Of a stretch of DNA of 64,000 bases, positions 397 to 62,745 are shown one piece after another (the stretch's first letter is position 1; every line of letters begins with the position of its first letter). The DNA is taken from NCBI GenBank assembly GCA_051294375.1, contig CM119264.1, positions 26,910,340 through 26,974,339 of the forward strand, written 5' to 3'. The DNA comes from Paraspadella gotoi. Lineage: Eukaryota > Animalia > Chaetognatha. Made by a program: the position numbers and the translations under genes. Under the pieces are notes generated by a model. It was given only the letters and a program-made list of their open reading frames with translations, ran no database searches and had not been told where the DNA came from.

Positions 397-851
397 TGTC
401 GCCTGATGTGTTGTGGGCGGAAAGTGCATCACCAGGTTGAGGCATGTCGCCTGAAAGTGTTGTTGTTGCTGTTGTGTTCGGAAGACGGGCTCACCAATGA
501 AGAGACAGTAATTATTGATAAGTGTTAATGACAGAACCGTTCAATATAAGCAGTAAGGCGTAGTGAAAGTTACATACAAAAATTCTAAATATCAATTATG
601 AACAACATACCATCAGTAAACTTTAATTTGTAAAAAAAAATTAATTTTATGTTCAATTTTTGCAGTAGGCTATATTTATATATAGTACTACTCCTATAAC
701 ACCATGTTACAGGCGGGTTAAGCGCCCCGTCCCTCTTAACTGCTAGGCGACCACCGGGCTAGAACCCCGGACCTTTGGGTTGGGAGGCGAATGATTTGCC
801 TCCAGCACCAATGGCCGCTGATGAACGGTTGGTGGATTTTAGTCTACCATA
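397..851 (-). mobile_element. Family-1 tRNA/twister repeat copy with P4 replaced by a hAT-MITE end fragment (554-693)
   Basis: Reverse complement of 694-851 matches 60720-60880, and that of 397-554 matches 60471-60632. Confidence 0.8.
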
Positions 852-2982: not shown

Positions 2983-3253
2983 ACGTCCAGTACTTTGCTA
3001 TAGAATTAGAATGAGGAAAGAAAATTTTAAAAAATATATATCCAATGAGAAATGGTACGCATTTATTTGGTGTCACTCTCGAACGGACACGGGGTATTAA
3101 TTCTTATTATGAACCAAATGAATTCGATTACCTTAATAATTTGACTAGATAAGGGGTGATGGTTTAATTTTTTTTTTCACTTTAGCCATAATATAATAAG
3201 TCTCCTTTCCCACATTCAGCTCCGTATGTCGATGCGTCGCGGCCTTAAGTAGG

Positions 3254-6245
3254 ATGAGCAGTTTGATCTCCGGACCCTTCAACTCTCGGGGGTCCCGGCA
3301 GGCGTCTCCCAGTCTCCCTTCAATGAGCACTGGAGGCGTCGGCGGAGGCGGCGTCGTCGGAGGAGACGCTTTGCCCTCAGCGACCATAACCCCGGCGGCG
3401 ACAACTACAACTTACCAAGCGGAGGATTTCCTCAACATCCCCAACGACATGGCGCAGATGTTGGAGGCGGAGATGAACGAGATTCTCCACGGCGGCGGAC
3501 TCGGCTCCGCCTTCGGCCCGCCGGGCTCTCAATTAGACGCGGATTCGACGGCGCCGTTTTTCATGCGTCTCGATACTCCGGGGCCGGACGAACTCCCGAG
3601 TCTCGACTCCTTCGATCCGCTCAACTTCGGCGTCAACCTCGAGTCGGACTTCGAGGGCAAATACGCGAGCCTTCTGTCCGGCGAGGCGCCCAACCTCTCT
3701 TCGGACACATTCTGCGGGAGGATGTCTTCGAGCGTGGTCGTCGATCGAGCCACTCTCACGACATCTCCCTTTTCTTCGTTTCTCTTCGACTCCAACTCTC
3801 AGCCCGGCAGCGTCGGAAGCACCGGAAGCGGGATCAACAGGAATCCCATACTCATGGTGGACCCGCAGACGGGGATTCCCAATCAGCCGATGGTGCCGAC
3901 GACGGTCTCGCAAAACGACGACAACGATTCTTCAAAACTCTGGTCGGAAACGACGACGACCAGGACCGTGAGTTCGTCGTCGCTCTCGTTCGCCACCAGA
4001 CCCTCAATCGCCGCCCCTCACTTGCCTTTCCCTGCGCCGGCGACGCAATCGGGAGCGGTTGCCGCCGCCGCTTCCCAGTGTGACCGCGACGTGCACATGA
4101 TGTCGCCGCCACCGACTAAACCATTTGTCAAGAGCGAGGCCACTTTCGCCGGCGAGAATTCCAAGTCTTCCGAGGCTCGGGTGGCTCAATCCGCCGCCGC
4201 CCAAAATGTCCCCGTCAAATCCGAGGAGAGTTCTCAAGTTTGGAGTCAACTCCAAACCATTTTGCTCAGCGGCACCAACGGCCCGATCTCGAGCAGCCTG
4301 CTGCAGCAATTGCAGCCGCTGCTGTCGCAACAAAAATCCAAGAATATAATCGTCCAGGCAAAGGCGTTGACGCCGACCTCGTCGTCCGAGTCAGCGACTC
4401 GCGCCACCCCGCCCGCCGCCAACGGCCCCACGAGCTTTCAAACCGTGCAGATTCTCAAGTCGGGCGCGCCCGGCTCCGTCAACGGCACCAAGACCGTCGT
4501 CTTTCGCGGGGGAGATGTCCCCAAAGCCCCCGCCTCCGTCGGCACTCCCCAGGGCGCCTTTAGCACGCCGACCACGATGGCCGCGGCTCCTACGACGCCC
4601 TTCGGAACCGCAGTCTCGTCCGCCGCGCAAGGTGCTAATCGGAACGGCGCCGCGTTATCGTCCTCCGCCGCCTCCTACCCTAACCTCAGCTCCCCCTCGG
4701 AGGCGCGGAGCGGATGCAGCGTATCGTCGGAAAACTCGGACGAGGATTCGCAGGAAGTTGGCCACACGGACGGAGAATCGGACAATCCCTTTCCCAAGCC
4801 AGTCTACTCGTACAGTTGCCTTATCGCGCTCGCCCTCAAGAATAGCAAGACTGGAAGTTTGCCCGTCAGCGACATTTACAATTTTATGACGTGAGTAAAG
4901 CGAGAAATAAATATTAAATTTGAACAATCAATATAAAATTATTCATTCATACAATAAACAAGCTATCTTCCCCCTGACTTTAATCAGGCTATGGTACTTT
5001 AATAGATAAAAATATAATAATAATATAATAATAATAAGCTCTCAATCAAGTGATTTAAGTGATATAATAATTTTTAATCGTTTCCATTGAATTAAATGAC
5101 CTCTCCCTTAATTATGTATCGGGGTATACAAAATACAAGGTTCTAAATATTATGAAATTAATAATGCCAATATAAAATTAATCATTCATTCATTCATTAA
5201 ATAGGTTCTCATGCCCCTGAGTTTGGACGGTCTATTTGATTCACATTCGAGTAAAGTTTACTCCGTACTAATAATAATAAATGTTTAAATTTAAAAAAAA
5301 AAGTCCCCATCTATTCACAACCCTTTATATCGTTCAATTCAGCGATAACTTTCCTTACTTCCGTACCGCTCCCGACGGATGGAAGAACTCTGTACGACAC
5401 AACCTCTCTCTCAACAAATGCTTCGAGAAAATAGAGAAACCCGGAGCCAACGGCCAAGGGTCACGGAAAGGATGCCATTGGTCGCTCAATCCGCTCAAGT
5501 TGGAGAAGATGGAGGACGAGATCATCAAGTGGCGAAAAAAGGATCCTCAGGGCGTGCTCAGGAGCATGTCTTATCCCGGTAAGGAAATGTGATAGTTCAC
5601 AGAAGCCGTGAGCTGTTAGTAGATGTCTTTTCACTTTTGTTGAGCCTTTGTAGCCTACACCCGTTAAGCTTTTTTCGTCGAATTTATTGCAATGTAGATA
5701 AGCAGCGTTGGGGGTCGGGTTTTTTTTTAAAGATAGTTTTCTTCCAACTGTTACAGTTGGTTACCTCTTGAAATAAAACTTTACTATCGCAACTTAACCT
5801 CTCTCCTTTCGTGTCTCCCCACCGTTCCACAGAAAAACTGGAATCGATCGAGCGCGGAACCATCACGTCCTCGAACTACTCCGAATTCTCTCACCTTCGC
5901 GATCCCCGTCTTTTGTTCGAAACTCATTCCGACGAACCCGAGTCCCAGTCAGTCCCGTCGCAAGTTCCCAGCGTCTCCTATCCCGCCAAACAAATGGTAA
6001 AGATGTCCGATCTCGGCACCGCCCTGCAAAAGGACGCCATCAAAAAGGATCGCGACATTTCCACCATCGACGTCTCGGTCCGCCACGAAGTCCCGCCCAC
6101 CCAGTTGACAACGACGGGAAATATCTTGGCCTCGCTGAGCGGAATCGCCGGCGGCTCCAACTCCATTAAGTTTTCCTTTTCTCCCGGAACGAATCGCGGA
6201 AAGTCTTTGTCCCACTTGACGTCCATCCTTTCCAATCAGACTTAG
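3254..6245 (+). CDS. FoxN1/4: Forkhead box transcription factor, FoxN1/4 class (761 aa predicted); exons 3254-4890, 5343-5578, 5833-6245
   Basis: The forkhead domain [33 protein letters not shown]|[32 protein letters not shown]...[10 protein letters not shown]...RSMSYP|EKLE is characteristic of FoxN1/N4. GT-AG introns 4891-5342 (phase 2) and 5579-5832 (phase 1) join in frame; total 2286 nt. The frame is open back to a splice acceptor at 3219, so an upstream exon is possible. AATAAA at 7026-7031. Confidence 0.93.
4920..5270 (-). mobile_element. Degenerate family-2 repeat (partial tandem) in FoxN intron 1
   Basis: The reverse complement shares AAAGTCAGGGG..AGATAGCTT.TTTATT.....TGAATG..TAATTTTATATTG and spacer words (CCTTGTATTTTG, TAAGGGAG.GGTC) with 44500-44710. 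Confidence 0.7.
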
Positions 6246-38985: not shown

Positions 38986-41900
38986 TTAGCCGCCACACGA
39001 TTCTGTTTTCGCTGCGAGGATTTCGTTGACGGAAGCGGTGGTTCCGACGAAGACGGCGAAGACGCTGAAGACGAGAAGTAGGGCGTCCAACCAGAGACGC
39101 CAGTTCAAACGCCCTGCTTCTTCGGGTCTTTGGGGAAGGGCGGGAGGAAGGGGAAATACGTATTTAAAAAAACGAGGCAGGGTAAAGTCATCGCCGAATT
39201 GTGAATTATTGTGACACCTTGGAATCCTACGTAACAAATCGATGACGATGGGGATTGTCACGGACAAAGGGCAACCGATGAGAATTCCAACCAGCGAGAT
39301 GAAGGGGCCTGATTTTGAGAATGCAAAAGACGTTTCAGTTTTACGAATTGGAAAAATATTTACCCAATCATTAGTAATTTATGAAATAACAAGGAACGGT
39401 TATTCCAAGGTGTTGCGCGACGCGGCGCGGCGCCAGTAGTCGCTTAGATTTGATTTTTAACAAATGGGCAATAATCTATAAGCAAGTTATAAGCGCTTTT
39501 AACGTAAGTGGGACAGACCGATGGACAGACATACCGACGGACCGACCGACCGACCGACGGACGGACATCACTGCCATTACGATTAACTTACACCTTCAAT
39601 CACAACCAAAACGATTCACGTTGAGTTCGATCGTCTTCGGGACAACTCACCGATGTGCGGAAAAGCGGCGGCGATGACAGCGGAGCAGACGACGACGACG
39701 ACTCTGAGGCCGAAGTCGCAGAGATCGAGGTGGCGATCGTCGACGATCCACTTCTTGACGCCGCCGAAGACAATCCCGTGAGCGACGAAGAACTGGATGG
39801 CGTAGGAGGAGACCACCGCGCAGGAGAAGATGCCTTTGAGGCTGAAGGAGGAAGTAGGCAAGAAAGTTATAAAGAATTAGCAAACTCTTTTGTGGGAATT
39901 TTAAATAAATTTCTGGGGTTTATAAATACGTTTTTTGATACAAAATGAACTTTTACGATATGTACAGTGACTTATAAACGATTTCCGCATAGCTTGGCCG
40001 GGTTGAGGGTCCAAGCAAGGCAAAAAAAACCGTGTCTAAATGATTTTGTGAATTAGGTTTAAAAACAAACCCAAACAATCATTCATAAACTTACGACGAA
40101 ACATTTTATACAATTAGAGGTTTATGGATCTAATTACTACCAATTATGTTACTATGGCAATGGGGGGGGTCATGTGTGATGCCTGGGGTGTGAGGCATCT
40201 CCCAACAGCTGGCGCTCAGGGCTTTGGACGAGCTGAGATTCACCAAGCTATGCGGAAGGCGAATTTAGGATTCGCCATATTACATATATTGCTCTGCAGC
40301 AAAGAGAGGCCTAAATATAGTCGAACATTTCCTACAAATAAATAATAGGGCTGCGCATCGTTCGAATCGAAGTTCCGATCAAGTTCCTTTATATTTCACT
40401 TCTTTTCAAAACTGCATAGTCAAGGCCAATATAAATTATATCAATATGGGTGAGTTTCGAAAGCTTGGCGTCTTGGGAAGCCAACGGAGGTAGAGCGCGA
40501 TCGAAATTCCCATTTTATCATGCCCAAAAATGGTATTTAAATGAACTGGTCAGACCGTTTTTTCCCTTTTCCAAAAAACCTGCTTGATTTTTGTAAAATA
40601 GAACAAATCATACATATCAGTACGGTTTCGGATAGCTTATTGTCTTCTCTACTAGGTAAAAAAAAGAAAAGTTTAATTCTTGCAATCTTGAATGCCTGAT
40701 AAAGCAATCAAATGAACTGGTTTTTTAGGTGAAAACTGCATAGTCAAGCCTTCAATTTTTTTTTTGTTCTAAGACCATCGAAAGAAACTGTATTGTTTTT
40801 TACTATCTGTTTCAGGTAGAGCGCGGGGGTAAATTTAGAGAGTTTATATTAAATTTAGAGCAAATAGAAAGGATATCAAGTTTTTGCACCTAAAAGCTTT
40901 TTTAAGCGCGTTCCGGTCTGTATTGAGGACATCAATTAAAATTAAGCATTGATCATGCGCGATCCGGGCCAGATAAATACCATATTTCAACATGGCTTTA
41001 CCGTATTTTTTACGTTTTAGAACGCAGTCTGTATGAAATTTTTGAATTTCACGCCTGTGATATTGGCGTTCTCGGCGTCGTTTGTCCCTTGTTAGTCTCT
41101 TTATCTTATCTCTTGAAGAGACATTAATTTTGTTATGTGATAGTGACAAACCGTTCAATAAAATCTTAAAAGCAATGGATCGAGCTTACTTTTAATGATA
41201 ACCAAATATTGATGCGATGATAATCAAATATTGATGCGAAGATAACCGAAGGATTGATGCGATGATAACAAATGATGTATGCGATGATAGTCATTCATTG
41301 ATGCGATGATAATCATTCATTGATGCGATGATAGTCCTTCATTGATCGGATGATAATCATTCATTGATGCGATGATAGTCATTCATTGACGTGACGTGAC
41401 TTTGAAAAAAGTATGCATATTTTAAAAAAGTATGCATACTTCAAAAAGTATGCATACTTTTTTCAAAGTATGCATACTTTTTTGAAGTATGCATACTTTT
41501 TTAAATATGCATTCTTTTTGAAGTATGCATACTTTTTTCAAATATGCATACTTTTTTTCAAAGTATGATACTTTTTTCAAAGTTGCATACTTTTTTCAAA
41601 GTTTGCATACTTTTTCAAAGTTGCATACTTTTTTGAAGTATGCATACTTTTTTAAAATATGCATACTTTTTCAAAATATGCATACTTTTTTCAAAGTATG
41701 CATACTTTTTTGAAGTATGCATACTTTTTTTAAAAATAGCATACTTTTTTAAAATATGCATACTTTTTTTAAAGTATGCATACTTTTTTAAAATATGCAT
41801 ACTTTTTTCAAAGTATGCATACTTTTTTGAAGTATGCATACTTTTTTAAAATATGCATACTTTTTTCAAATTATGCATACTTTTTTCAAAGTTTGCATAC

Positions 41901-44334
41901 TTTTTTCAAATATGCATACTTTTTTGAAGTATGCATACTTTTTTTAAAATATGCATACTTTTTTCAAAGTATGCATACTTTTTTCAAAGTATGCATACTT
42001 TTTTCAAATATGCATATTTTTTCAACTTGCATATCTTTTTCAACTTGCATATCTTTTAACTTGCATATCTTTTTCAACTTGCATATCTTTTTCAACTTGC
42101 ATATCTTTTTCACTTGCATATCTTTTTTCAACTTGCATACTTTTTAACTGATTACCGCTAAATTATCTTAGTCAAATCCGACATTGTTTGCTCAAACTTG
42201 TTCTATAATAAGCCGGATTCAGATATGACAATTTTAGATATTAAACTATCGTCTATTATTTTTAATTTTTTATTCATTGATCAATTTATTACACATTAAT
42301 CATATATCTTTTAATTATAGTTTTATTGCTATCATTTAAATCTGTTATCATAAATTAAAATGATTCAAAAATGAAAAATTAATCGTTAAGTGACAATAGT
42401 GAATTCTTAATTAGTTAGTTTAATAGTAGTTTTGCTGGTGAGATCAGTCAATATACTTTCAATTTATTACTTCTTTGGCTCTCTTGTCTTTTCCTTTTTT
42501 ATTCTGTTATAATTATGTTATTTTTGTGATGAATTTTGTAAGGATTCCTTTTTTTCCGGGCTTCGCTTATTCTATTTTCTCTTATGAGGCCGGTTCGCGC
42601 ATAATCGCTATATCGGTTTAAAGCTTAGTACTATAGTACAGTAGTTCAAATCCTTATTGGATCAAACCGAGTTCGATTTTAAGCGAAAGTTGATCGATTT
42701 GAAGCGCGATTTTCGCGACTGTTTTTTATTGCCATAACTTTTGAACGGATTATCCGATTTTATAAAATTTTGCATATAGATAGTATTTTAAATTCCCTAT
42801 CGATCGGTACCAAATTTATTTAAAATACCACCAATAGTTAGAAACGATGCACATCCCCATATATAATTCGAGGATTACAATGATTTATTGAGTTATAAAA
42901 TACCTATCATTAATCAGCCCTTTCGGCAAATTGAGAGTGATTGCTCGCAGCGAGTCTCGCCCGAATCTCAAGTAGCCAAAGAAAGCGAAGGAAAGTAGAG
43001 ATGTGGCGCTCAACGTGATTCCGACGTTGGTGACGCCGAAAGGGGACGTCATCTCTTCGGGCAGCGCCATTTTGTTTTCCAAAGGCAAGACGACGACGGA
43101 ACCTTGGCAAAAAAAATTATAAGAGCTTGTTTGAATATGTTTAGAATAGATTTTGGTATTTTTTGACTTTTCTGTGCGTTTGGTTTTTTTAAGTTTTCTA
43201 AACAGAAACTAATTTAAAACTTAGTCTTGAGATCATAATCAAACATCTATCAGTGTTTAAACGTTCTTAACAGTAATTTATACAAGGCTTTTAAAATTAA
43301 GCATTTTCCCCACACATTCAAATATCAAACCACAATCATTTACCCTCGAAAGAAAAAATGAGCGTCGCAAAGAAGACTGGGTACTTAATCGGATCTGGAG
43401 CAACCATGTCCAATTCGCTCATCGGCAGAAAGTCTTGCAGCAAGAAAGCGAAGATGATGGTTGATGCAAGGAGTTGAACGGCGATGCCGACGCAAGATAC
43501 GATCGCTAACAGTTCCACGTTGCGGACAAAGATGACCAAGATGATCAGAGGGAAGGTCAGGGAAATGTAAACCTGCACAGGCCAGGTGCAGTCGATAATT
43601 TCTCGAATGTTTTCGCCTGAAAAAGCACGTCTCAAGAATTATCTACTTTCAAATTAAAACTAAATAATAAAAAAAAAAACATCTTTCCTTACCAATAAAT
43701 ATAAAGTAAAAAATGAGAATCGACCATTGTTGCAGCAAAATCAGAGAGTTTAACATTTTGTGGGCAAATTTAGCGAATGGTGCACAGAAATTAGGACCGT
43801 AAGCAAATGCAAACTGGAACGTGTCCCCATAGTCTAGAGAGCCTCGTTCGGTTAATGCACAAAAAAACCTAAAAAAGAAAATATTTATACTTAATTGCAA
43901 ATCGCGTTAATATTTATGGATTATTCAAAATTTCACCTCGAGGCAGACACCAAGCAGTGCAAGCAGTAAATCAGCAGCAGGGAGTAGAGCGGAATCATCG
44001 CCCCGGCGACGAGCAGTCCGACGCGGGCGACGGCTGCGGGCAACGCCAACGTCGCGGGGCCGACGAAACATTTGACGAAATGCGCCAGGGTAGCGTGAGT
44101 GGAGATTCTGTCGGGCGGAGACGAAGTCGACGCCGATTCTCTCAAAGGATGGGCGTGGCGCGACTCTTCCGCCGAAATAGCATCGATCACGTCCAAGCCT
44201 AACAAACGTCTCGTCTCTGCTGCGACGTTAGAACTTTTTTCGCCGTTGAGGCCGACGTCGGGGACGCTGCCGCCGCAGCTGCCGCCACCGCTTCCGCCGC
44301 TGTCGCCGCTGCCGCCGCTGCTAGCGTTTTTCAT
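38986..44334 (-). CDS. Proton-coupled amino acid transporter, SLC36/PAT-like (Aa_trans family), 519 aa predicted; exons 44334-43937, 43868-43693, 43616-43344, 43102-42904, 39841-39651, 39308-38986
   Basis: Motifs TLAHFVKCFVGPATLALPAA, SLDYGDT, FFATLIFSFEGSVVVLPLENKM, FGYLRFG...ITLNLP, YAIQFFV and FISLVG match SLC36. All five introns are GT-AG and phase-consistent; exons sum to 1560 nt ending in TAA. Confidence 0.92.
39388..39570 (-). mobile_element. Truncated HINE/DINE-like element in SLC36 intron 5
   Basis: Same terminus AACAAGGAACGGTTATTCCAAGGTGTTGCG and GACCGAC repeats as the 49135 copy. Confidence 0.7.
41195..41390. repeat. Tandem repeat of about 21-22 bp (TGATGCGATGATAATCATTCAT)
   Basis: About nine visible units. 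Confidence 0.9.
41400..42147. repeat. Minisatellite of about 19-20 bp with palindromic core AAAGTATGCATACTTT
   Basis: More than 30 visible units; drifts to CAACTTGCATATCTTTT at the 3' end. Confidence 0.92.
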
Positions 44335-44464
44335 TTTTCAACACCCACCTTCTTTTTAAAATTTTAGACAATGTTTTTTTAGTTGAATAAAACATAAAAC
44401 ATAAAATAGAATATAAACCATAACATAAAGCTTGCGGAAAGCTTGCAGGGACCCGCTATGTCAT

Positions 44465-44527
44465 TATCTTGTAAGAGTGATGGAGGCCATAAACCACCAA
44501 AGCCTGTCCAAAGTCAGGGGCGAGATA
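44465..44527 (+). ncRNA. Twister ribozyme, type-P5 permutation, no P3 (repeat family 2, copy A)
   Basis: P5 TATCTTGT/GCGAGATA; P2' GAGT; GA; T1' TGG; AGGCCA; TAA at 44490-92; P2 ACC; T2 AC; CAAAG; P4 CCTG/CAGG closing T-CCA-AA-GT. Confidence 0.78.
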
Positions 44528-44791
44528 GCTTATTTATTAAATGAATGGATAATTTTTATATTGGTTGTACCAATTTCATAAATTTTAGCTCCTTGTATTT
44601 TGATGCTGGACGGAGTACAATATAAATATATATACGATCTAATACTTAAGGGAGTGGTCTTTTCATACAATTGAAACATTCTTTAAAATATTATACCACT
44701 TCATTGATAGGGAAGCCACTTACTCTTGGAGTGAATAAACGAGACTGTGAGAGAGTCTTGATTGAAAGCTTGCAGGGACCTGCTATGTCAT

Positions 44792-44854
44792 TATCTTGTA
44801 AGAGTGATGGAGGCCTTAAACCACCAAAGCCTGTCCAAAGTCAGGGGCAATATA
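44792..44854 (+). ncRNA. Twister ribozyme, type-P5 permutation, no P3 (repeat family 2, copy B)
   Basis: Same layout as copy A, with palindromic P1 AGGCCT (44811-16) and TAA at 44817-19. The P5 3' strand GCAATATA has one mismatch. Confidence 0.78.
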
Positions 44855-45116
44855 GCTTATTTATTAAATGAATGGATAATTGTTATATTGGTTGTACCAA
44901 TTTAATAAAAAGTAAAATGTTTAAAAAAGCATTTCGGAAGAAAAATACAGTCGCCAAAAGTAGATTACATAATTTCAAATAATTTAAAACATTTGACGGA
45001 AAGAAACTCGTATTAAAAACTTTTTCGAAGGTCTATGTCGTAAGCTGTCTCTAGTTGATTTCAAATATCTACGTGGAACATTCGACCGAGATTTACTTTT
45101 TGTTTAATGAGATCTG

Positions 45117-59810: not shown

Positions 59811-60397
59811 TTTATTTTTATCATTAATGTCAAAAGCAATACAGGCTCTTTGTTTAAACATGTTAAAATTCAGAACGGCAGAATTAATCTCGGCCTATAA
59901 TTATAAACATATAATTTTCATCAAAAAACTAAAGTAAGCAACGATATTGTTTGGATTTAAGAGGCTTTAAGCACAAAAACTGTTAATCAATGGAAAATGG
60001 GCGAAAAGAGTTTTAAATTAACAAAATAATATGTGAAAAATATTGGCATATTAGGGCACTTAAAATCGTTATTAGCAATACAGTAAAGTAACGACGTTGA
60101 TAATTGAATTTATTATACAAAAGAAGATAATTCGCTGGCATACTAGGGTAGATAACTTGCATATGTACTGTGTAGTAGGGTTGAAGTGAAAGTTTTGAAT
60201 CAAAATTTAAAGCAGTTATATTTTGAAACTATCTTAATTAGGAATACTAAATCTGTAGTTATTTTTTTTTTTTATAAAATATAGTAACCCAGTCAACTTT
60301 TTAGTATAAATTATGTTACCCTTATGCCATTGGTGCCAGAGGCAAGTCAATCACCTCCCAACCCAAAGGCCGAGGGTTCTAGCCCGGTGGCCCGCCT

Positions 60398-60476
60398 AGC
60401 AGTTAAGAGGGACGGGGAGGCTTAACACCGCCTGTAACACAGTGTACAGCCTGATCCGAAAAGCTCAGGGACTGCT
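60398..60476 (+). ncRNA. Twister ribozyme, type-P5 permutation (repeat family 1, copy A)
   Basis: P5 AGCAGTT/GACTGCT; P2' GAGG; GA; T1' CGG; short P1; TAA at 60423-25 (predicted cleavage U/A); T2 GC; P3 hairpin CTGTAACAC...GTGTACAG; P4 CCTGA/TCAGG closing T-CCG-AA(AA)-GC. P2 pairing is imperfect in this copy. Confidence 0.78.
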
Positions 60477-60827
60477 TATATTGAACGGTTCCTGTCACTA
60501 ACCATAACAATAATCCTGTCTCTTCATTTGGTGAGCCCGGACTTACGAACACAACAGCACAACAACACTATTCAAGGCGACATGCCTCAACCTGGCGATG
60601 CACTTTCCGGCCAAAACACATCAGGCAACATGCCTCAACTAAGGTAACAACTTTCCACCAACAACAACAATTCACTGAAAGACGCAACAGACTTCTCCCT
60701 CCGGGAGGAGGGGAATGTATGGTGACTTAAAATCCACCAACCGTTCATCAGCCGGCCATTGGTGGCTGGAGCAAGTCATTCGGCCTCCCAACCCAAAAGG
60801 TCCGGGTTCTAGCCCAGGTGGCCGCTT

Positions 60828-60903
60828 GCAGTTAAGAGGGACGGGCGCTTAACCCGCCTGTAACAAGGTGTTTACAGCCTTATCCGAAGCTCAGGGGACT
60901 GCT
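60828..60903 (+). ncRNA. Twister ribozyme, type-P5 permutation (repeat family 1, copy B)
   Basis: GCAGTT-AA-GAGG-GA-CGG-GCGCT-TAA(60850-52)-CCC-GC-CTGTAAC..GTTTACAG-CCTTA-TCCGAAGC-TCAGG-GGACTGC; one mismatch in P4. Confidence 0.78.
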
Positions 60904-61253
60904 TATATTATATTATTATATTATAATAATGCCAAAATTTCAAAATAAGTTTTTTTGAAATTTTGACTCCTCATAAAAAGTTGATAACGTACATATCTTT
61001 TTTAAAAATTAAGTATTAAGTAGGTTAAAATTGTTAAAAACTAATATTTTATTTGAAAATAATAACATTAAGTATCATCAAACATATTTTTTTTTAATAT
61101 TTTTGACAAACTTAATGAAAGAATGTTAAAAAAGAATTAATACTTTCTTTATCAAATTTTTGAAACAAATTCAAAATCTGGTTTTTGTAATTTTAAATTT
61201 TATTAAACAAAGTTGAAATTTTATTTTTGTAAACGAATTTTATTGTTACAATG

Positions 61254-61298
61254 AGCAGACATGTTATCGGCTCAACAGTACGAGCCTTCACAGCGCAT
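61254..61298 (-). ncRNA. Degenerate inverted copy of the 62699 hammerhead
   Basis: Reverse complement GCG-CTGTGA-AGGCTC-GTACTGTT-GAGCC-GATAA-CATG-TC-TGC. Flanks 61200-61320 match 62677-62795 in inverted orientation. Confidence 0.7.
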
Positions 61299-62558
61299 GA
61301 GTTGCTGAAGTTGATACATGTTTTTTTAAAGTTAAAGAAAGAGAGAGAGAGAGAGAGAGAGGTTAAGGTTCCAAAACAAAGAATGAGGTAATTAACATTT
61401 GAGAAGCACATACATAGATAAAGATAATGGAAACTTGTCTAATAACAATTGAAAAATAAATTAATTTTTTTTTGCCGTGTGGCAACCATGACACCGTCCG
61501 AATCTCTGGCAGGCATCTCAGGCCTCTTTCTGTGAGTCTGGCGTCGTCCCAAACCGACGGCTGCAGGAAGATGAAGAGGATTCAACCATCCCTTGTCACT
61601 AAAATGGCAAGAGTGGATACCCGCCCGCCTACCGTCAGGTAGTAAGAGGGCCGCCGGCAGGCGTCACAGGCCAGAGGGATAATAAAGGGTGGGCCTTGGG
61701 TTTGTTTCGCTCAGGGAGCATACCTGACCCAAGGCCAACACGAAGATCAAAGTCCCATTTATCCTCTCAACCCATAACGCGCCAATGACCCGGCCTGTCA
61801 GGCAAACCTCTCCTTCATAAAGACCGGGGGTCTCAGCTAATTTTTGAGCCTCTTTCTAATTCATTATATTTCACTACAATCTTTTACTTATTCTATCCCT
61901 CTAAAATCTCATATTTGCAACTTCTCAATTTCAATTTTTCAACATATTCAATTTCAAAAAAATTATTTATTTCAATTTGTTATTAGAAGTTTCCATTATC
62001 TTATATCTATGTTGTACATTTGCTCAAATGTAAATTATTATTTTCTCATCTCTCTCATCTTCTCTCATCTCTCTCTCTATCTCACCAATTTTCAATATCT
62101 TTCAAAACTTATCAATACTAGGGCCACTTCTAAAAATCTGTCCCTCACCACTGATACACTGGTCCTTACCAAATTCTTGTTGGAAAGCTTTATACCCTCT
62201 CTCTAGCTTTCTCTCTCTCTCTCATCATCTCTCATTTCCTTTAACCTAATAAACTTTTTTGTTTACATTACAAAAAATGTAAAAGATTTTCTCTTTCCCT
62301 GTCTCTCTCTCATCTCTCTCTGCTCATCCATTTCAAATTTCAACCAACTTATTTCTTTACCCCCTGGATCTTACCTCACACTGTCCTCATATCCTGACCA
62401 CATGTCGTTTGCTCAATTCTTTGTTGAAAAACTCCCTCTTTTTCTGTCTCATCTCTCTCTCTCTCTCTCATCTCCTCTCTCTCTCATCTACCTCTCTCTC
62501 TCATCTCTCTCTCTCTCTTATCTCTAAACCTATTTGATAAAGAGTAAGAATTATTGAT

Positions 62559-62615
62559 TGTCAATACTGATGAAAGACTCTAAAATTCATGCAAGAGTCG
62601 AAACATGTATTAACA
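62559..62615 (+). ncRNA. Hammerhead ribozyme motif (PLE pseudo-LTR), possibly degenerate at the cleavage site
   Basis: TGTCAATA-CTGATGA-AAGACTC-(14 nt)-GAGTC-GAAA-CATG-TATTAACA. Confidence 0.72.
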
Positions 62616-62698: not shown

Positions 62699-62745
62699 AT
62701 GCGCTGATGAAGGCTCGTACTGTGAGCCGAAACAATGTCCTGCTC
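62699..62745 (+). ncRNA. Hammerhead ribozyme motif (PLE pseudo-LTR)
   Basis: GCG-CTGATGA-AGGCTC-GTACTGT-GAGCC-GAAA-CAATG-TC-CTGC. Confidence 0.82.

Follow-up and report, generated by a model that had tools for sequence, protein, structure and literature searches.

Introduction

Type-P5 twister ribozymes reportedly go back to Roth et al. 2014. Helix P1 of twisters is usually regarded as dispensable. The closest described dimeric systems are minimal type I hammerheads of Penelope-like elements and of amphibian satellites/retrozymes (PMC7229834, PMC6765202, PMC7761336); hammerheads with a 1-bp stem and a palindromic tetraloop cleave to 6% as monomers and much better as dimers (PMC7229834, PMC6765202), and in animal retrozymes cleavage releases unit-length RNA (PMC7229834). 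Naiad elements are reported without a canonical hammerhead, and a twister is not mentioned in the available text (PMC8557442). The DNA treated here is a stretch of 64,000 nucleotides (nt) of the chaetognath Paraspadella gotoi (GenBank assembly GCA_051294375.1, contig CM119264.1, positions 26,910,340 to 26,974,339, forward strand), referred to as a whole as the window; coordinates count from its first letter. Two repeat families in it have a P5 twister-like fold in which P1 is replaced by a self-complementary hexamer, and their cleavage is predicted to be most efficient as a strand-swapped dimer. Pairing of P1 between tandem twisters had been proposed in a first-pass annotation of the window and is supported by comparative evidence (majority palindromes, the metagenome contig L001 and 7 of 53 Naiad tails).

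Twister-like folds

The copies carrying the fold are as follows.

44782..44856 (+): family 1, copy B, majority type; P5 44782-89/44846-56; P2 G44802, G44804 and T44805 with 44820-22, A44803 bulged; catalytic-position G44806, then A44807; T1' 44808-10 with 44835-37; T2 44823-24 with 44840-41; P4 44830-33/44842-45; predicted cut U44817/A44818
44811..44816 (+): linker in place of P1 in copy B; AGGCCT, a perfect palindrome and the majority form of the family
44455..44529 (+): copy A of family 1, forming a head-to-tail pair with B, which follows 327 bp downstream; linker AGGCCA 44484-89; predicted cut 44490/44491
44530..44781 (+): family 1, spacer that separates twisters A and B in the tandem unit
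60399..60476 (+): copy F of family 2, whose twister-like fold includes P3 and has several additional bases; the linker at 60416-22 is GGAGGCT, non-palindromic
60827..60902 (+): copy G of family 2, 429 bp downstream of F; the linker at 60845-49 is GCGCT, one G short of the majority GGCGCT; L4 60883-90; predicted cut 60850/60851
698..745 (-): family 2, copy E, 5' half, interrupted after P3, no L4; linker GGCGCT 726-721 (-), majority type

A strict descriptor (GA-T1', UAA, T1, T2, P2, P4 and L4 loop) matched exactly A, B, F and G in the window and gave one match in 30 block-shuffled windows; a looser version additionally picked up AT-rich junk. No further full copy was found in the window by a sequence-only model. 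The U^AA cut-site motif and the GA of L1, with the general-base G, were present in all five window copies and in L001, and every window linker sits between GA plus T1' (TGG or CGG) and TAA. The pseudoknots comprise 3 Watson-Crick pairs in T1 and 2 in T2; copy E ends before L4. P4 closes an 8-nt L4 (U-N3-AA-N2) in A, B and G, and F carries two extra A. Covariation was observed between the families: T1 UGG/CCA vs CGG/CCG; T2 AC/GU vs GC/GC; P2 A-U vs C-G. Alignment of the families by MAFFT misplaces L4.

The canonical P2 of 4 pairs was replaced by 3 pairs and one bulged base in both families and in L001. No intramolecular P1 hairpin was predicted in any linker; Rfam aligns a loop of zero length, and a forced 1-bp hairpin within the hexamer costs +4.1 to +5.8 kcal/mol, in agreement with the earlier statement that the linkers are too short for a stable hairpin. 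Since the intramolecular P1, the 4-bp P2 and an Rfam score above threshold are all missing, the elements are classed as a twister-class variant and not as canonical P5 members. Scores below the Rfam threshold also mean that such twisters are likely missed systematically.

Linkers at the P1 position

All five linkers were found at the coordinates given in the first-pass annotation (listed above). AGGCCT and GGCGCT are palindromic and are the majority forms; AGGCCA, GCGCT and GGAGGCT belong to minority or damaged copies. Majority states were read from public assembly contig pieces aligned to the window families. The repeats are of high copy (14,273 contig pieces of run X1, possibly the source sample, align to family 1, 587 to family 2); summed contig depth was not taken as copy number. 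AGGCCT is the majority in family 1, the only linker variants among the 40 of 71 variant rows listed being G44812A (2.3%) and C44815T (2.6%). GGCGCT is the majority in family 2: the extra G behind 60842 accounts for 88% of the depth in X1 and for 99% in X9, possibly an RNA run, and the linker showed no substitution row of at least 2%. Palindromy as a property of genomic copies, which had been proposed as a check, is thus the majority state in both families. In runs X10 and X12, which are of other organisms, near-identical contigs numbered 3 and 1, respectively, and were taken as possible carry-over and not as relatives; no family 2 piece was seen in runs X18 and X19, which is no proof of absence.

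The two majority hexamers differ in their centre, GC in family 1 vs CG in family 2, and such a change of the central dinucleotide is explained only by pairing between two strands. A 6-mer whose two inner pairs are Watson-Crick and whose outer pair is Watson-Crick or GU is expected by chance at 0.023 (window background 1527/62239); among the chance pattern matches used as a control, self-complementarity was seen in 2 of the 64 that had 6-nt linkers.

Relatives

Metagenome and phages: The metagenome was scanned with a fixed core and a linker free at 3-25 nt. Three matches resulted, and of these only L001 has P4 and P5; L002 and L003 were rejected as lacking P4. The linker of L001 is CAAUUG, a 6-nt palindrome unlike both window hexamers; its Rfam Twister-P5 score is 24.2 bits. 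L001 is a contig of 1097 nt with a terminal repeat of 123 nt (either a circle of 974 nt or a collapsed tandem); it has no open reading frame (ORF) longer than 123 aa, no second ribozyme by a simple motif scan, and is not strongly rod-like (-298.7 vs a shuffle mean of -281.6, sd 9.7, 12 shuffles). Three palindromic hexamers out of three (two families and L001) would have a chance of 1.3e-5 if independent, a value that overstates the case because they are homologues. Among the matches listed from four viral scans and one prokaryote-genome scan (at least 478 loci) there was no short-linker P5 twister. L228 and L448 were rejected as weak chance matches, and L067 was rejected as a short-linker P5 twister, being two type-P1 twisters in tandem; these abut at L067:279-378 (-), with a 6-nt palindrome at the junction. 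Phage contigs L092 and L113 (281-338, 565-623) carry two type-P5 twisters each.

Naiad tails: The last 400-490 nt of 53 of the 54 Naiad consensi (PMC8557442, File S5) were read by eye. P5 twister folds were seen in 7 of the 53 tails (Mley, 1_Movir, Mgal, Bpla, Mphi, Scon, Mmer), the carriers being a ctenophore, a box jellyfish, three mussels and two clams; searches of the supplement with fixed L4 strings recovered only 3 of the 7. All seven have a perfect palindrome of 6-12 nt directly after T1' and a second one, perfect or with one mismatch, ahead of the cut site, with no pairing between the two. The centres of the palindromes are CGCG, GTAC, CTAG, GCGC, TGCA, GCGC and GCGC. Naiad_Mphi has a mismatch in T1, and in three of the Naiad twisters the cut-site U is replaced by C or G. 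The lead-in AAG-N-GN-GA is common to the bivalve Naiad twisters and family 1, and Naiad Mgal shares T2 AC/GU and P4 CCUG/CAGG with family 1. The palindrome is accordingly kept in relatives without sequence identity (L001 and the 7 of 53 Naiad tails), as the first-pass annotation had asked to be checked. A second conserved structured 3' motif was noted in the tails of Naiad_CGi, Sglo, Olur, Tgra, Pmar, 1/2_Skow, 1/2_Pfla and 1/2_Chem; by eye it is not a twister and has two short palindromes of varying sequence, and it is possibly another dimerising or self-cleaving RNA.

With the window centres GGCC and GCGC and the L001 centre AATT added, all ten families have a self-complementary central tetramer, in 7 different sequences (chance 1 in 16 each). 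Since these four bases are unable to pair inside a single strand, they are not accounted for by descent from a hairpin.

Energetics and proposed mechanism

The calculated energies count nested pairs only, as the program ignores pseudoknots; with these unscored, the folding numbers show feasibility only. For window 44455-44860 the swapped dimer was calculated at -20.5 kcal/mol vs -14.0 for two monomers and -12.7 without P1 pairs; with the remaining sequence free to fold, -74.0 was obtained for the swapped dimer against -64.7. Linker pairing probabilities in homodimers were 0.65 (B), 0.80 (L001) and 0.96 (fragment E, inner four bases); for the odd copies 0.01 (A), 0 (G) and 0 (F). The minimum-energy dimer of L001 has P5, P2, P1 and P4 in the swapped arrangement, P2 being one register off. 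None of five monomer minimum-energy folds was twister-like; all bury the L1/T1' strand in non-twister pairings. Competing hairpins were noted in monomers: 44787-44809 (family 1) buries the catalytic G-A and T1', and 60831-60853 (family 2) buries the UAA cut site; as modelled, they could contribute to monomer silence.

With one hexamer, paired copies set T1' of one beside UAA of the other, and therefore the dimer must be strand-swapped. Head-to-tail pairs are present (A-B, 327 bp; F-G, 429 bp; a decayed pair at 4912-5228); A-B and F-G, if co-transcribed, would provide the substrate for a dimer. In a tandem transcript the hexamer of copy 1 would pair with that of copy 2 to give a 6-bp P1 shared by two back-to-back cores; the outer core would consist of the 5' half of copy 1 and the 3' half of copy 2, and the inner one would be an ordinary type-P1 twister with P5 closed by the spacer. 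Cuts at U^A in both copies would give unit-length RNA of about 327 or 429 nt. Its ends would be a 5'-OH and a cyclic phosphate, and RNA of this kind is what is usually circularised or reverse-transcribed; reverse transcription would be carried out in trans by a Penelope-like element. Slow cutting is expected of a single copy and of a ligated monomer circle, so that host transcripts and circles would be spared. In family 2, cleavage would put a tRNA-like head at the 3' end of the unit.

The hammerhead precedent is one of enhancement and not of absolute need; for this reason enhancement of cleavage by dimerisation is considered probable, and an obligate dimer is put forward tentatively. In the latter form the palindromic P1 is predicted to confine twister activity to multimers, with monomers and circles silent. 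It is also conceivable, at a comparably low level of confidence, that widespread and overlooked obligate-dimer twisters process Naiad-type elements, non-autonomous tandem repeats and some circular RNAs, the window holding the smallest form.

Counter-evidence and alternative explanations

The following points weigh against a dimeric twister. The Rfam Twister-P5 scores (copy B 25.8 bits, copy A 22.0 bits) lie below the gathering score of 37.6, and family 2 has no Rfam twister match. P2 is reduced from the canonical 4 pairs to 3 with a bulge, and a shortfall in P2 may disturb the active site (review PMC5408937); P2 imperfections are reported as tolerated in type-P1 twisters (PMC11662667), and the phage P5 twister of L113, at gathering level, is likewise one P2 base short. 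The unconstrained minimum of the tandem (-101.8) is neither active form, the swapped P1 has a probability of 0.24 in the tandem, and no tandem pair of the window carries two majority-type linkers. Positions of the family 1 core vary by 2.4-3.0%, the same level as the linker; hexamer bases are thus lost as fast as core bases, and selection is visible only between families. Palindromic stretches lie inside the ordinary P1 hairpins of 20-22 nt of both L092 twisters (2 of 4 phage P5 examples), so that long GC-rich linkers hold palindromes not infrequently. The ten families are related and not independent, and the Naiad set, besides having been read by eye, differs in geometry, with two palindromes. 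No match to reverse transcriptase (RT) or GIY-YIG was found in 79 translated window pieces (Pfam and motif scan); the link to Naiads consequently rests on RNA similarity.

Further points of this kind concern P1 itself. The hexamer could serve as a tether in a monomer, as six nt may span a helix end. That twisters lacking P1 can be active, as the first-pass annotation had cautioned, is borne out by P1-less twisters that cleave near the wild-type rate and by the mini-twister, which can do without P1 (PMC5408937), and P1 imperfections without loss of cleavage are found among about 1,900 natural twisters (PMC11662667), a survey of type-P1 permutations only, where P1 has free ends. Some dependence on P1 is reported for S. 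mansoni twister variants (PMC8501958).

The repeats might accordingly be P1-less twisters active as monomers, each copy cutting alone, with the hexamer a shrunken hairpin or a tether and its palindromy a leftover. The dispensability of P1 (PMC5408937, PMC11662667) and the existence of P1-less S. mansoni variants, some of which cleave (PMC8501958), agree with this, and a shrinking hairpin would likewise leave the outer pairs of a palindrome. A hairpin remnant fails, however, to explain the self-complementary central tetramers, and the burial of the L1/T1' strand in all five monomer minimum-energy folds also speaks against it; the explanation is held to be unlikely.

It is likewise improbable that the palindrome joins two RNAs to serve a different stage of retrotransposition (template pairing or jumping, or packaging together with RT) while monomers cleave equally. 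Against this stand the position of the palindrome, which in every case lies exactly at P1 and abuts T1 and the cut site, and the circumstance that with one hexamer RNA pairing necessarily rebuilds P1 for both cores. What it does account for is the conserved palindromy, the two-palindrome linker of Naiads, which would join RNAs without a strand swap, and the paired palindromes seen by eye in twister-less Naiad tails as well.

Non-functional ribozymes, decayed or resembling twisters by chance, would fit the sub-threshold Rfam scores, the bulged 3-bp P2 and the lack of an RNA-type run among the listed carriers of the repeats (sequencing-run search), but are very improbable in view of the compensatory changes in T1, T2 and P2 between families, the 4 descriptor matches vs 1 in 30 shuffles, the core intact in most of thousands of contig pieces, and L113 with its equally short P2.

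The dimeric twister-like fold with a palindromic P1 is retained as the probable reading.

Other features of the window

The remaining features are the following.

4912..5228 (-): two decayed family 1 fragments (3' half of twister plus tail), one behind the other
746-818 (-); about 60326-60398; about 60755-60826: tRNA-like head before the family 2 twister
62567 (+), 62704 (+), 63264 (+), 10271 (-), about 61245-61320 (-), 38795 (+): minimal type I hammerheads of several repeat families

Family 1: Parts of the spacer 44530..44781 turn up again in other copies (self-BLAST; loose ends of contig pieces). The decayed fragments lie inside an intron of a forkhead gene, on the strand opposite to the gene. 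The stretch CTGTGA...GAAAGCTT upstream of copy B was rejected as a hammerhead, as its core is broken and helix II is out of register.

Family 2: The tRNA-like head has a 7-bp acceptor-like stem and a box-B-like motif in 3 of 3 copies; the motif (GGTTCTAGCCC at 766 (-), also at 60375 and 60805) was judged against the box B consensus. Rfam gave a weak tRNA-like match of the head (E 9.6), and ARAGORN found no tRNA gene in the window. The head is likely a putative RNA polymerase III promoter, as in short interspersed elements (SINEs). The hairpin GGGTTCTAGCCC was rejected as twister L4 and is read as a tRNA T-arm/box B. In the literature searched, no SINE-like tandem unit (~429 bp) that bears a twister was found.

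Hammerheads: The ACATGT-type minimal hammerheads of the first-pass annotation were recovered at 62567 (+) and 10271 (-), where helix III is ACATGT; helix III is a variant of it at 62704 and 63264, and degenerate or partial at 61245-61320 and 38795.

Setting: The window is animal genomic DNA rich in microsatellites, with ten N runs. It contains the forkhead gene (3200-5589 (+), split by a GT-starting intron; Pfam), which from its domain sequence we take to be FoxN-type, and an amino-acid-transporter gene (Aa_trans, about 39600-44335 (-), with exons at 39619-44337; Pfam). The A-B twister pair lies about 120-520 bp past the likely start codon of the Aa_trans gene, on the opposite strand. At 41408-42145 there is a 19/39-bp tandem satellite with a palindromic unit around TATGCATA. 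Rfam microRNA matches in the window were rejected as microsatellite artefacts.

Comparison with known systems

In the literature searched, most subscription journals lying outside it, no description was found of a twister that is dimeric or palindromic, nor of one residing in a Penelope-like element or a SINE. No dimeric twister is reported in the available text of PMC7761336, PMC5408937, PMC6765202, PMC13725137, PMC5680766, PMC7229834, PMC13445480, PMC12542633, PMC10162972, PMC10085705 and bioRxiv 10.64898/2026.09.16.752053 and 10.64898/2026.07.22.740005; truncated twisters in RTE elements are referred to as unpublished work (PMC7761336). New are the form with a single hexamer and the fact that it is the majority, together with L001 and with the twister folds in published Naiad consensi. 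If the palindrome gates cleavage, two unrelated ribozyme classes would have converged on a multimer-only switch in the same kind of host element. The twister folds of 7 of 53 tails, if real, would be a part-answer to the stated puzzle of hammerhead-less Naiads (PMC8557442), these tails carrying a twister fold instead. A twister dependent on concentration or on a partner would be a useful part for RNA logic and for circular-RNA production.

Type-P5 twister (RF02684; PMC5408937): The repeats agree with it in strand order, the U^AA cut site, GA before T1', the 3-bp T1, the 2-bp T2, the U-N3-AA-N2 loop L4, the G-C-closed P4 and the open P5; the optional P3 is present in family 2. They differ in lacking an intramolecular P1 hairpin, with 6 nt instead of about 20 (P1 hairpins of 20-23 nt in the phage P5 examples L092 and L113), in the non-consensus T1 and T2, in P2 (3 pairs, bulge) and in the predicted action as dimers.

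Naiad elements (PMC8557442): Common to the repeats and to 7 of 53 Naiad tails are the P5 twister fold with palindromes at P1 and the lead-in, and probably a partial tandem layout is common too; Naiad linkers hold two palindromes over 20-23 nt, and the window is without the Naiad ORF. Head-to-tail partial pairs, a possible sign of a pseudo-long-terminal-repeat or partial tandem organisation, are present in the window. The repeats are likely non-autonomous relatives of Naiad-type Penelope-like elements; their descent from such elements is inferred from the common RNA subtype and the tandem layout.

Schistosome elements: The S. mansoni twister T-variants at the 5' end of Perere-3 long interspersed elements (PMC8501958), and the mini-twister, are likewise linked to retroelements and have a weak or missing P1; the T-variants are of type P1 and their P1 is open, its 5' strand being supplied by the target site, and a palindrome or dimer is unreported in the available text (PMC8501958). 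The SM-alpha hammerhead SINE (PMC6765202) resembles family 2 in the tandem units and in the tRNA-like putative polymerase III head upstream of the ribozyme, and after cleavage the promoter would come to lie 3'-terminally in the unit; family 2 carries a twister instead of a hammerhead.

Dimeric minimal hammerheads (PMC7229834, PMC6765202, PMC7761336): As in these, a palindromic minimal helix stands beside the cut site and is kept across families; the ribozyme class and the catalytic core are others, and the helix predicted to be shared is P1 and not helix III.
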